Shown here piece after piece: positions 417-4,330 of a DNA stretch of 33,121 nucleotides. The stretch is from a virus. Position 1 is the first letter of the stretch. The number at the start of each line of letters is the position of its first letter. The notes below the pieces were generated by a model that was not told where the DNA came from, ran no database searches, and saw nothing but the letters and a program-made list of their open reading frames with translations. The position numbers were made by a program, and so were the translations under genes. The stretch is taken from the UHGV virus genome UHGV-0036156, one strand, 5' to 3'.

Positions 417-944
417 TTATACGGTTTTTTTTACATCTTGTGGTTCTTGTGAAGGAGCTACAAGACCTTCCTGTTCATGAATACCATACTCTGGCAAAAT
501 CTCTTTGCGCGCATCTGCTGGTAATTTTTCTAGCATTTGGGCGAGTTGTATGCACTCACGCGATACGCCGTGCAGAGATTGGATTTGGGGCTGCTCAAAG
601 ATACTTGGCATTAGTGCTCCAAGTCCGCCTTTACTAAGTAGCTTTAATGCTCTCTGGATCTCCTCTGGTTCTAACTCTGCAACCAAAGTCATTAACACAG
701 AAGCTAACTTATCAGCTGGCTTATCGTTATCTAATAACTGCACCCCTCCTAATTCTGCCTGAGTGGTATCAGGTAATGAGCTGATATGGTATTCATAAGC
801 AACCCCCTTTACTCCTTTGATCTGCCTCTTTTTCCATCCCTCATTAGTTGCTTTGCGGCTAATACTACTTGCAGAAGACGGAAGACCAGCAACCCCTTGT
901 AGCTCTTTAGCTGAAAACCATTCTTGTGTCATCACAAACTCCAC
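417..944 (-). CDS. c: Mu c-type repressor; N-terminal DNA-binding domain shared with the transposase
   Basis: Minus-strand ORF diverging from ner. N-terminus ([31 protein letters not shown]...YEYHISSLP) is highly similar to the N-terminus of the A ORF. ORF track start is GTG at 944; an ATG at 932 preceded by GGAG is the more likely start. Confidence 0.85.
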
Positions 945-1123
945 TTTAAATACATGGTGTATTCAAAGAAATCAAAAATATATTCGCTTTAAAATCATTA
1001 GGATATGAGAATTTAAAGCAAAATATTTGAATACACTGTTGCATTGACAATGTATTCACACTAGCATTGCTGTATACCTTATCAGCTACCTTGCAGCGTA
1101 GCTGATGGCGTAGCTTGTGAGGA
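945..1123. promoter_or_regulatory. c-ner divergent control region (operators, early and repressor promoters, probable transposition enhancer)
   Basis: AT-rich 179-bp spacer between divergent c and ner. Repeated motif TGTATTCA/TGAATACA at 957-964, 1028-1035 and 1051-1058; TTGACA at 1044-1049; 9-bp perfect inverted repeat ATCAGCTAC-n8-GTAGCTGAT at 1081-1106. Confidence 0.6.
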
Positions 1124-1351
1124 TTGCATTTTATGGCGATAAAGAAAAGTAAATGTGAAGACAAAAGCAGATACGACATTGTTGCTGATCTGCGCAAAAG
1201 AGGAAAAAGCCTAGCAGCTCTTGGGCGTGAGAACGGTCTCTCTATCTCTACGGTAAAAAATGCCTTGGATAAACCTTACCCTCGGGGTGAAAGAATCATT
1301 GCCGATGCATTGGGAGTTGAGCCACGAGACATCTGGCCTTCGAGGTATTGA
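1124..1351 (+). CDS. ner: Ner-like DNA-binding protein (early negative regulator)
   Basis: Approx 72-aa protein ending ...[21 protein letters not shown], characteristic of Ner/Nlp. ORF track start is TTG at 1124; ATG at 1133 with upstream GAGGA is the likely start. Stop overlaps the start of A. Confidence 0.85.
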
Positions 1352-3354
1352 AAATGCAACCACAATGTAATGATTGGTTTTCTGCAAAGAAACTAGAAGG
1401 GTTGATAGGTCTTCCAAAATCCTCTAGCGCGATCTCTCGTAAAGCAAGGTTAGAACAGTGGGTGTTTCGACAAATACACGGGGTAAGAGGAGTAGCTTAT
1501 GAGTTTCATATCTCATCTTTACCAAAGGAAACGCAAGCTGCGTTATTGCTTAGACAAGGAGAGATTGAAACAAGCCAGGGCCGTTTTGAAATCGCCCGCC
1601 CCACGCTGGAAGCTCATGATTATGATCGTGAGGCACTGTGGAGCAAATGGGATAACGCCAGCGATTCCCAGCGCAGACTTGCTGAAAAATGGTTGCCTGC
1701 GATTCAGACTGCAGACGAAATGCTGAACCAGGGGATTTCAACGAAAACGGCTTTTGCAACCGTTGCTGGACATTACCAAGTCAGCGCATCCACTTTGCGG
1801 GACAAGTATTACCAGGTACAGAAGTTTGCGAAGCCTGACTGGGCGGCTGCGCTTGTTGATGGACGTGGTGCATCCCGTCGCAACGTTCACAAAAGTGAAT
1901 TTGACGAGGATGCCTGGCAGTTTCTGATTGCAGATTATCTGCGACCGGAAAAACCCGCCTTTCGCAAATGTTATGAGCGTCTGGAACTGGCAGCACGTGA
2001 GCATGGCTGGAATATTCCCTCCCGTGCCACGGCCTTTCGCCGGATTCAGCAACTGGACGAGGCAATGGTTGTTGCCTGTCGTGAAGGTGAACATGCACTG
2101 ATGCATCTGATACCGGCACAGCAGCGAACTGTGGAACACCTGGACGCCATGCAGTGGATCAACGGCGACGGTTATCTGCATAACGTCTTTGTACGCTGGT
2201 TTAACGGCGATGTGATCCGTCCGAAAACATGGTTCTGGCAGGATGTGAAAACCCGAAAAATTCTGGGCTGGCGCTGCGATGTGAGCGAGAACATTGATTC
2301 AATTCGCCTCTCGTTCATGGATGTTGTGACTCGCTACGGTATCCCGGAGGATTTTCACATCACCATTGATAACACCCGTGGTGCTGCGAATAAATGGCTG
2401 ACGGGAGGCGCGCCCAATCGCTACCGCTTTAAAGTGAAAGAAGACGATCCAAAGGGGTTGTTTTTACTGATGGGTGCGAAAATGCACTGGACAAGCGTTG
2501 TTGCCGGTAAAGGCTGGGGCCAGGCAAAACCTGTTGAACGTGCTTTCGGTGTTGGTGGGCTTGAGGAATACGTTGATAAGCATCCGGCACTGGCTGGCGC
2601 ATATACGGGGCCGAATCCGCAGGCAAAACCTGATAACTATGGCGACCGCGCTGTTGATGCAGAGCTGTTTCTGAAAACCCTTGCCGAAGGTGTGGCGATG
2701 TTCAATGCCAGAACAGGCCGTGAAACAGAAATGTGCGGAGGCAAACTTTCGTTTGATGACGTTTTTGAGCGTGAATACGCCAGAACGATTGTGCGTAAGC
2801 CAACCGAAGAACAAAAACGGATGCTGTTACTGCCTGCCGAGGCGGTGAACGTTTCACGCAAAGGCGAGTTTACGCTTAAAGTTGGCGGCTCCCTTAAAGG
2901 CGCGAAAAACGTTTATTACAACATGGCATTAATGAATGCCGGCGTGAAAAAAGTTGTGGTCAGGTTTGATCCACAGCAGCTACACAGCACGGTTTATTGC
3001 TACACCCTGGACGGCCGGTTTATCTGTGAAGCGGAATGTCTGGCACCAGTTGCATTTAATGATGCTGCGGCAGGCCGTGAGTATCGTCGACGCCAGAAAC
3101 AACTGAAATCTGCAACTAAAGCAGCCATTAAGGCGCAGAAACAAATGGACGCGCTGGAAGTTGCTGAACTGCTGCCGCAGATAGCCGAACCAGCAGCACC
3201 AGAATCAAGGGTTGTTGGTATTTTCCGGCCTTCCGGTAACACGGTGCAGGTGAAATACCAGGAAACCGATGATGAATATGAAACTGATCGTGATGAATAT
3301 CTGAATCACTCGCTGGATATTCTGGAACAGAACAGACGTAAAAAAGCCATTTAA
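1348..3354 (+). CDS. A: MuA-type DDE transposase
   Basis: About 666 aa, immediately after ner; N-terminal domain is homologous to the repressor N-terminus. ORF track start is TTG at 1348; ATG at 1354 is the likely start. Confidence 0.95.
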
Positions 3355-3391: not shown

Positions 3392-4330
3392 ATGAATATT
3401 TCTGATATTCGCGCAGGACTGCGCACGCTTGTAGAAAGCGAAAAAACAACTTATGCGCAAATCGCCCGCGAATCTGGAGTTGCCGCAGGAACGTTAAGCG
3501 CGTTCGTGAATAACAAGTACAACGGCGATAATGAGCGTGTTGCGCAGACGCTGGAACGCTGGCTGGAGAACTATCACCGCGCCGCAGAACTGCCAGAACC
3601 CCCTCGTTTTGTGGAAACCAGAACAGCACGTCAAATCTGGACGAGTATGCGCTTTGCCAGCCTGACTGAAAGTATTTCCGTTATCTGCGGTAATCCAGGT
3701 GTGGGAAAAACTGAAGCAGCCCGCGAATTTCGTCGCACCAATAACAATGTCTGGATGATCACCATTACCCCATCCTGCGCCAGTGTTCTGGAATGCCTGA
3801 CTGAACTGGCTTATGAACTGGGAATGAATGACGCACCGCGTCGTAAAGGGCCACTCTCCCGCGCTTTGAGACGCCGTCTCGAAGGTACACAGGGGCTGGT
3901 CATTATCGACGAAGCTGATCATCTTGGCGCAGAAGTTCTGGAAGAACTCCGCCTGTTACAGGAATCCGCCCGTATTGGTCTTGTTCTGATGGGGAATCAC
4001 CGCGTTTATTCAAATATGACCGGCGGAAACAGAACGGTTGAATTTGCCCGCCTGTTTTCCCGTATTGCAAAACGGACGGCAATCAATAAAACCAAAATTG
4101 ATGATGTAAAGGCCATTGCGGATGCCTGGCAAATTACCGGCGAAAACGAGCGGGAATTATTACAGCAGATTGCGCAAAAGCCAGGTGCACTTCGTATCCT
4201 GAACCACTCGCTGCGCCTTGCTGCCATGACGGCCCACGGCAAAGGTGAACGTGTTAATGAAGATTATCTGCGTCAGGCTTTCCGTGAATTAGACCTGGAT
4301 GTTGATATTTCAACCCTGCTGCGTACGTAA
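3392..4330 (+). CDS. B: MuB-type AAA+ ATPase, transposition target-capture protein
   Basis: 312 aa with Walker A GNPGVGKT and Walker [11 protein letters not shown], directly downstream of A. Confidence 0.95.

Follow-up and report, generated by a model that had tools for sequence, protein, structure and literature searches.

Predicted repressor operators and a predicted D108-type Ner operator in the c-ner spacer of a Mu-like prophage with a probable immunity specificity of its own

A probable switch region of the Mu/D108 type

The viral genome UHGV-0036156, analyzed here as a single 33,121-nucleotide stretch of DNA (the window), contains a 200-bp spacer (933-1132) between a leftward repressor gene, c, and the rightward genes ner, A, and B. 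This divergent c-ner spacer is most probably the lysis/lysogeny switch of a transposable prophage of the Mu/D108 type that has an immunity specificity of its own, with predicted repressor operators that would double as a transposition enhancer and with a predicted D108-type operator for the Ner protein. Directly observed are the sequence features themselves, the homologous positions that they occupy, and the way in which DNA and protein change in concert from one immunity group to another. A preliminary description of the region had read it as repressor operators accompanied by a Ner control element, and this reading is supported by comparison with related phages, by the flanking genes for a PF02316 repressor and a PF13693 Ner protein, and by collinear sites in D108 and SfMu. 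The same description had proposed a distinct immunity group, which is supported by the lack of DNA homology to Mu between positions 537 and 1515, with an identity to D108 of 66% over positions 885-1129, and with a c repressor that is 38-47% identical to the repressors of D108 and Mu.

Four half-sites arranged as two dyads

The 8-mer TGTATTCA occurs exactly three times in the window, at 958-965 and 1051-1058 on the plus strand and inverted at 1028-1035, all within 101 bp. The second and third of these copies had been located correctly in the preliminary description, as had AATACA-tgg-TGTATT at 949-963, while the first had been placed one base too far to the left, at 957-964. The repeats extend beyond what was then described, reading CTTTAAATACA-tgg-TGTATTcAAAG at 944-968 and TGAATACAcTGT-n7-ACAaTGTATTCA at 1028-1058, and include a perfect 11-nt inverted pair at 957-967 and 1026-1036. 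Taken together, the spacer holds four 11-bp half-sites of the form TTTRAATACAY that compose two dyads, O1 (944-968), which lies 12 bp away from the start codon of c, and O2 (1026-1060), approximately 80 bp from O1. Specifically, the left arm of O1 is half-site S1 (TTTAAATACAT, 945-955, plus strand) and its right arm is S2 (TTTGAATACAC on the minus strand, 957-967, read as GTGTATTCAAA on the plus strand); the left arm of O2 is S3 (TTTGAATACAC, 1026-1036, plus strand), the perfect 11-nt inverted copy of S2, and its right arm is S4 (TGTGAATACAT on the minus strand, 1050-1060, read as ATGTATTCACA on the plus strand), which carries one mismatch.

With one mismatch or fewer, TTTRAATACAY is matched six times in the window, four of these matches falling at 945-1060, against an expectation of 1.9 and with none of 100 shuffles reaching six. 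The whole-window count of TGTATTCA is less striking (three observed against 1.0 expected, a number reached in 7 of 100 shuffles). When the 200-bp spacer alone was subjected to 2000 dinucleotide shuffles, some 8-mer reached three copies in 2.2% of them, while 2.0% contained a perfect dyad whose arms were 9 bp or longer and whose gap did not exceed 10 bp.

Comparison with D108, SfMu, and other immunity types

The spacer of the window is collinear with the control regions of D108 and SfMu, at an identity of about 60-66% for the spacer itself. Each of S1-S4 has a counterpart in D108 and SfMu at the homologous position, and at all four the window carries ATAC where D108 and SfMu carry AATC. Thus S1 (TTTAAATACAT) corresponds to TTTAAAATCCT in D108 (TTTAAAATCCY in D108 and SfMu), S2 (GTGTATTCAAA) to GTGATTTCAAT, S3 (TTTGAATACAC) to TTTCAAATCAC (TTTCAAATCAY in D108 and SfMu), and S4 (ATGTATTCACA) to ATGATTCCACA. 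Common to all three are an O1 dyad that has a 3-bp centre and lies beside the start of c, a second pair of half-sites that flanks the -35 hexamer and occupies the spacer of an early promoter (Pe, predicted in the window), a Ner dyad downstream of Pe, and a c DNA-binding domain homologous to the N-terminus of the transposase A. What sets the window apart is the core of the half-sites, which is ATACA at all four sites as opposed to AATCA in D108 and SfMu, together with an additional GTAGCT 12 bp downstream of the corresponding unit of the Ner dyad; in addition, and unlike in D108, the C-terminal half of the window's c protein resembles that of Mu. D108 and SfMu themselves represent one immunity type, their c proteins being 89% and their Ner proteins 98% identical (PMC4406740). 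When these two phages are compared with each other, positions defined from the sites of the window are identical in 55 of 62 cases, as against 65 of 99 elsewhere (Fisher p=7e-4).

The proteins expected to read these sites differ in parallel with the DNA. Ahead of a conserved RKA...W, the putative recognition stretch is SSISRKA in c of the window and SAISRKA in A of the window, and TNITRKA in both c and A of D108 and SfMu. TNITRKA is also found in c of L287 and L288, two much more distant Mu-like loci from metagenomes, with TNVTRHA in the A protein of L288; the spacers of these loci contain 10 and 8 copies of AATCA, respectively, including an AATCAT-ttg-ATGATT dyad near the start of c, and none of ATACA. 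ATACA is present four to five times in the spacers of the window's immunity group and is absent from those of D108, SfMu, L287, L288, and Mu. Other immunity types repeat a core of their own about four times. This core is AGGAAC at a locus from Actinobacillus and ATAAAC in L010, and at both loci c and A again have a recognition stretch in common. The Actinobacillus locus has an AAGGAAC-ttt-GTTCCTC dyad 16 bp from the start of c and a layout (17+, 26-) similar to that of the window (19+, 28-).

These comparisons bear upon the idea that the copies of TGTATTCA and its inverse TGAATACA arose by chance in a spacer rich in A and T, or reflect a simple symmetry associated with promoters, and that no dedicated protein binds them. 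In favor of this idea are the shuffled spacers mentioned above, of which 2.2% hold an 8-mer in three copies and 11% a 6-mer in four, the 7 of 100 whole-window shuffles that yield three copies of TGTATTCA, and the finding that 14-base versions of the motifs each match more than 120 unrelated viral contigs. Against it speak positions homologous to the half-sites of D108 and SfMu with an identical dinucleotide swap at all four, an identity that is higher within the sites than outside them, the absence of ATACA from all other spacers compared, and recognition stretches of c and A that change in parallel, and this idea is regarded as very unlikely. Assignment of the half-sites to the repressor, and by homology to A, is preferred.

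The predicted early promoter and the region to its left

Pe is predicted at 1039-1067 on the plus strand, with a -35 hexamer TTGCAT (1039-1044), a 17-bp spacer, and a -10 hexamer TAGCAT (1062-1067), so that transcription would start near 1074. It is in register with TTGATT-17-TACATT of D108 and with the corresponding promoter of SfMu; the TTG of the -35 hexamer and the CATTGC that follows the -10 hexamer are invariant across all four sequences compared, D108 and SfMu among them. Within the window's relatives, TTGCAT is invariant and the -10 hexamer is kept as TAGCAT or TAACAT. Half-site S3 lies directly upstream of the -35 hexamer and S4 falls inside the promoter spacer. The Mu counterpart of Pe, TTTACA-17-TATCTT, ends 7 bp before Mu position 1028, the reported start of the Pe transcript. 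For Mu, a Pe start determined by 5' RACE (rapid amplification of cDNA ends) agrees with earlier S1 mapping (PMC3820752).

A TTGACA box that the preliminary description had singled out is present at 1044-1049 on the plus strand and is probably not a -35 hexamer. Its use as the -35 of Pe was rejected: no usable -10 hexamer is found at 16-18 bp, the box is not invariant (it reads TTGATA in strain bR_120), and its register does not match that of the promoters of D108 and SfMu. The only promoter that the scan called, TTGTCA-17-AATATT on the minus strand (1050 to 1022), was considered as the promoter of c (Pc) and was likewise rejected, both of its hexamers varying among relatives and D108 having no counterpart.

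On the minus strand, the dyad at O2 (1028-1058) could also be read as a hairpin in the leader of the leftward c transcript, where it would work as an attenuator or an intrinsic terminator, and a terminator scan does call a 12-pair stem there with a 7-nt loop and the tail AATATTTTGC. Transcription of c in Mu begins to the right of Pe, and if Pc of the window lies there as well, the homologous c transcript would contain the O2 hairpin. The AT-rich stem has just three G-C pairs, however, its U-tract is poor and interrupted, no comparable combination of stem and tail is seen at the aligned place in D108 or SfMu, and two inverted operator half-sites explain the stem fully. A terminator here appears extremely improbable, and the terminator-like call probably arises simply from the inverted half-sites that make up the proposed operator.

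The predicted Ner operator

Between the predicted Pe and ner lies a perfect dyad, ATCAGCTAC-cttgcagc-GTAGCTGAT (1081-1106), with 9-bp arms and an 8-bp spacer. It had been noted in the preliminary description as a perfect repeat of this form just upstream of the ner ribosome-binding site, as indeed it is, and its pattern is not matched in any of 100 whole-window shuffles. At the aligned position D108 has CCGTGAGCTAC-tttatagc-GTAGCTCACGG; the arms of the SfMu dyad are identical to these, and its spacer differs at three of its eight positions. The window's dyad agrees with that of D108 and SfMu in spacer length and in the inner AGCTAC/GTAGCT, while the outer bases differ symmetrically on both arms. 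D108 Ner has reportedly been footprinted on its 11-bp inverted repeats with the 8-bp spacer. The recognition helix reads S-T-x-K-N-A-L in the Ner proteins of both the window and D108, as opposed to T-T-L-A-N-A-L in that of Mu, and Ner of the window is 65% identical to those of D108 and SfMu and 48% identical to that of Mu. A third GTAGCT (1110-1115), contained in GCGTAGCT (1108-1115, plus strand), directly repeats 1096-1103 at a distance of 12 bp downstream and is invariant in the group; absent from D108 and SfMu, it is possibly an extra Ner half-site beside the ner ribosome-binding site.

The dyad at 1081-1106 might instead act mainly as RNA, forming a stem-loop at the 5' end of the ner-A-B transcript, in its leader, and thereby stabilizing the mRNA or modulating translation of ner. 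It would be transcribed if Pe starts near 1074, and RNA of positions 1070-1140 folds to -25.7 kcal/mol as compared to -18 +/- 3 when shuffled (z=-2.5, equalled by 3 of 200 shuffles), in a fold that uses the third GTAGCT and forms an extended hairpin ending just before the ribosome-binding site. An A-to-G change at 1081 in relatives resembling PhiR68_1 breaks the DNA dyad and would keep a G-U pair, and the arm differences between the window and D108 are compensatory. Compensatory changes in the arms are, however, equally predicted by a symmetric protein site, and the third GTAGCT that the fold needs is missing in D108 and SfMu. A comparison with Rfam families returned sub-threshold chance matches only, the homologous D108 dyad is reportedly a footprinted Ner site, and a cognate Ner with the same S-T-x-K-N-A-L helix is encoded next door. 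A principal function as RNA is unlikely on this evidence; any such role would be minor, compatible with that of a protein operator and not needed in addition to it. Binding of Ner to the DNA dyad remains the favored interpretation.

The best structural relative of the window's Ner is EnrR, a Ner-family protein of Edwardsiella (PDB 7F9H/7F9I; E=2.8e-18). Itself monomeric, EnrR uses its helix-turn-helix (HTH) motif to bind palindromic DNA, on which two molecules pack closely together (PMC9023278). Unlike the window's Ner, EnrR is a chromosomal nucleoid-associated regulator with a preference for AT-rich palindromes (AATAAATNATTTATT) and not a phage switch protein; the Ner dyad of the window contains GC.

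Dyads with spacers of 8-10 bp also occur upstream of ner in five loci from Arsenophonus and Moellerella (L022, L023, L025, L027, and L028), where they take the forms TGTTATT-n8-AATAACA and AACCTGTTAT-n10-ATAACAGGTT, and look like further Ner-type operators with different arms. In one IMGVR_UViG contig (L147), ner, the Ner dyad, and the -10 hexamer of Pe are identical to those of the window, and unrelated GC-rich DNA takes the place of all that lies to the left of position ~1057, a point within S4. Lacking c, O1, and most of O2, L147 is a derivative formed by deletion or rearrangement.

The segment between the operators

The A/T-rich segment between the operators (969-1024) is the most variable part of the spacer, with 19 of 56 columns varying in 12 same-immunity sequences (10 of them distinct). 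Within it, AATCATTAGGATA (992-1004) differs at two positions from WATCAANNNNTTR and is a candidate bend site of the integration host factor (IHF) type; at the position aligned with 992-1004, D108 has AATCATGCTGTTA. Mu, by comparison, has a perfect IHF consensus, TATCAACGCGTTA, for which no equivalent was found in the window. A further dyad, GCTTTAAA-n18-TTTAAAGC at 985-1022, brackets an invariant AAAATCAT (990-997) that the window and D108 have in common despite their changed repressor specificity. Because it is kept in D108 in spite of this difference, the shared AAAATCAT hints at a site for a host factor such as IHF more than at a site for the repressor.

In Mu, the transposition enhancer overlaps operators O1-O3 and consists of two clusters of MuA sites with an IHF site between them (PMC3145075). 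The window is predicted to resemble Mu in this regard, with two clusters of sites for the repressor and the I-alpha domain of the transposase that are separated by a bendable segment.

An immunity cassette exchanged relative to Mu

The window shares with Mu its gene order and the position of the region about 1 kb from attL, and the rest of the prophage is ~92% identical to Mu. Homology in blastn comparisons nonetheless ends at position 536 and resumes at 1516, with no match to Mu in between, in line with the earlier statement that the motifs are not those of the Mu operator; the CTTTTCAG-type repeats that form direct and inverted arrays in Mu are absent from the operator region of the window, and the Ner site of Mu, CTAAGT-n6-ACTTAG, differs as well. 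At the protein level, the c repressor is 47% identical to that of Mu overall, mostly in its C-terminal half. Over the first 80 residues the identity of A to Mu A is 32-65%; it is 95% or more across residues 81-600 and falls to 88% (85% to D108) in the stretch 601-640. The homology gap, the divergent first 80 residues of A, and the homology of c and A in their DNA-binding domains indicate that a single block has been exchanged relative to Mu, comprising the DNA-binding domain of c, the operators, ner, and ~80 residues at the start of A, just as is seen when Mu is compared with D108.

Distribution and conservation of the immunity type

Among deposited phages the c-ner region is shared only by PhiR68_1, an isolated phage, at 91.6% identity; with Mu, D108, and SfMu, DNA comparison finds only attL and the 3' end of c in common. 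The region is carried at 94-99% identity by 15 of 5426 complete E. coli genomes, and by a small number of contigs from IMG/VR and metagenomes. When viral contigs were scanned for exact patterns, the core of the Ner dyad and the O1 dyad each gave more than 120 matches, and of the contigs matched, Ner or c is encoded only in those of the same immunity type and in one unrelated Mu-like contig, a chance match; the scans are uninformative except for confirming the group.

The preliminary description had made its operator reading depend on the conservation of the repeats in prophages with similar repressors, and the arms of the half-sites are mostly kept in the same-immunity sequences. Variation is concentrated in the inter-operator segment, the 3-bp centre of O1, and the centre of the Ner dyad. 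One of 12 columns is variable over 944-955 at S1 and two of 12 over 1050-1061 at S4, and the centre of O1 (955-957) is hypervariable, reading TGG, CCA, TAG, CGA, TTG, CTG, or TGA among relatives whose flanking arms are kept. Variation within the Ner dyad is confined to its outermost pair and a single base of its spacer.

Several observations weigh against the interpretation developed here. Each repeat feature arises in about 2% of spacer shuffles and is only moderately unlikely in so AT-rich a spacer, and the sequence statistics by themselves are suggestive rather than decisive. Substitutions in the core occur in single prophages: TGTATCC and GAATGCA in cS51a, TGCATTC in bR_120, and CGTATTC in E148. 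Divergence within the group is shallow, and greater conservation of the sites is only weakly significant, with 58 of 62 positions identical between the window and PhiR68_1 inside the sites and 83 of 101 outside (p=0.03). As positions 1082-1160 are nearly invariant as a whole, conservation does not single out the Ner dyad, and within-group conservation was rejected as proof of it. The Ner arms are 9 bp long, or 8 in relatives resembling PhiR68_1, as compared to 11 in D108, so that the full 11-bp CCGTGAGCTAC is not found. Pe matches the consensus at 8 of 12 positions, falls below the threshold of the promoter scan, and was placed by homology only, and Pc was not placed by the promoter scan together with comparison to relatives and D108. 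A search for the IHF consensus returned a single match with one mismatch (970-982) that is not conserved in relatives. Finally, it is from homology that we infer binding itself, the promoter positions, looping, and the role as an enhancer.

A proposed mechanism and its implications

The winged-HTH domain of c and the homologous N-terminal domain of A would both read the four TTTRAATACAY half-sites (homology between the N-termini of repressor and transposase has reportedly been noted in D108 as well), and the half-sites are expected to serve repressor and transposase alike because of their relationship to the Mu enhancer overlapping O1-O3. Since S3 lies just upstream of the -35 hexamer of Pe and S4 inside the promoter spacer, repressor bound at O2, straddling the -35 and filling the spacer, would block RNA polymerase. 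Oligomers of the repressor may bridge O1 and O2 across the A/T-rich and possibly IHF-bent segment. During lytic growth, O1 and O2 would serve as the transposition enhancer for A, following established Mu biology. The Ner dyad, which would occupy about +8 to +33 of the Pe transcript, would act with the extra GTAGCT (1110-1115) as the Ner operator, on which Ner monomers would assemble to turn down early transcription and, by analogy, transcription of the repressor gene.

A bolder proposal, which seems possible though rather doubtful, is that the window and D108 types form a natural minimal swap of specificity and, in addition, that the third GTAGCT gives rise to a three-unit, asymmetric Ner nucleoprotein complex (or an RNA hairpin) coupling the binding of Ner to the translation of ner. 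If so, the terms of the swap would be a TA-to-AT change in the core (ATACA as opposed to AATCA) paired with S-S/A-I-S as opposed to T-N-I-T in c and A. Nothing comparable to the proposed coupling is present in D108. Were the proposal true, a few residues and two bases would define heteroimmunity and the choice of enhancer, and orthogonal systems of Mu transposition and repression could be designed.

In its more conservative form, the analysis adds a third sequence-defined immunity type to the Mu/D108 group of E. coli, with explicit coordinates for operators, promoter, and Ner site. Four half-sites and the recognition stretch of two proteins that change together offer a clean natural experiment on the evolution of Mu-type specificity. 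No new mechanism is revealed; the region is an ordinary addition to a well-known switch, combining the layout of D108 with different recognition bases.

Prophage setting and flanking genes

Bases 1-77 of the window are host flank, and the left end of the Mu-like prophage (TGTATTGATTCAC...), attL, begins at ~78, with homology to Mu from 77-78; over bases 77-536 the identity to bases 1-458 of Mu is 82%. The c repressor gene (417-932, minus strand) encodes 171 amino acids from an ATG at 932-930, the same start annotated in RefSeq relatives, and matches PF02316 (E=6.9e-22). Its N-terminal ~62 residues form a Mu-type winged-HTH DNA-binding domain that matches PDB 1G4D (Mu repressor) and 1TNS (MuA I-alpha) and is 66% identical over 59 amino acids to the N-terminus of A from the same prophage. 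The mechanically called open reading frame (ORF) of c begins at a GTG at 944, inside half-site S1, adding the residues MEFV that RefSeq relatives, starting at the ATG at 932, do not have. In bR_120, c is annotated as a longer protein, the extra coding range being at the 3' (C-terminal) end.

The ner gene (1133-1351, plus strand) encodes 72 amino acids (PF13693, E=2.1e-25) from an ATG at 1133 that is preceded by a GAGGA ribosome-binding site at 1119-1123; its structural matches are PDB 1NEQ (Mu Ner) and 7F9H (EnrR). The transposase gene A (1354-3354, plus strand) carries the Mu transposase domains in Pfam together with PF02316 in its N-terminus, where the I-alpha domain (1354-1593, plus strand) is by homology the expected second reader of the AATACA half-sites. 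The B gene follows at 3392-4330.

More distant loci

Genome contigs from Serratia, Edwardsiella, and Pseudomonas lundensis (L012-L021 and L024) encode proteins with a DNA-binding domain of the Mu repressor type (35-42% identical). No Ner homolog is found within 1.5 kb in these loci, which are unusable for operator comparison and may represent a different arrangement or domesticated copies. An unusual layout with a duplicated repressor is seen in L291/L292, where two tandem ORFs on the same strand (~1501-1683 and ~2020-2202) each encode a Mu-type DNA-binding domain, with the recognition stretches STQGVHSMARR and STQGIHGMARR and a 645-bp spacer to ner.

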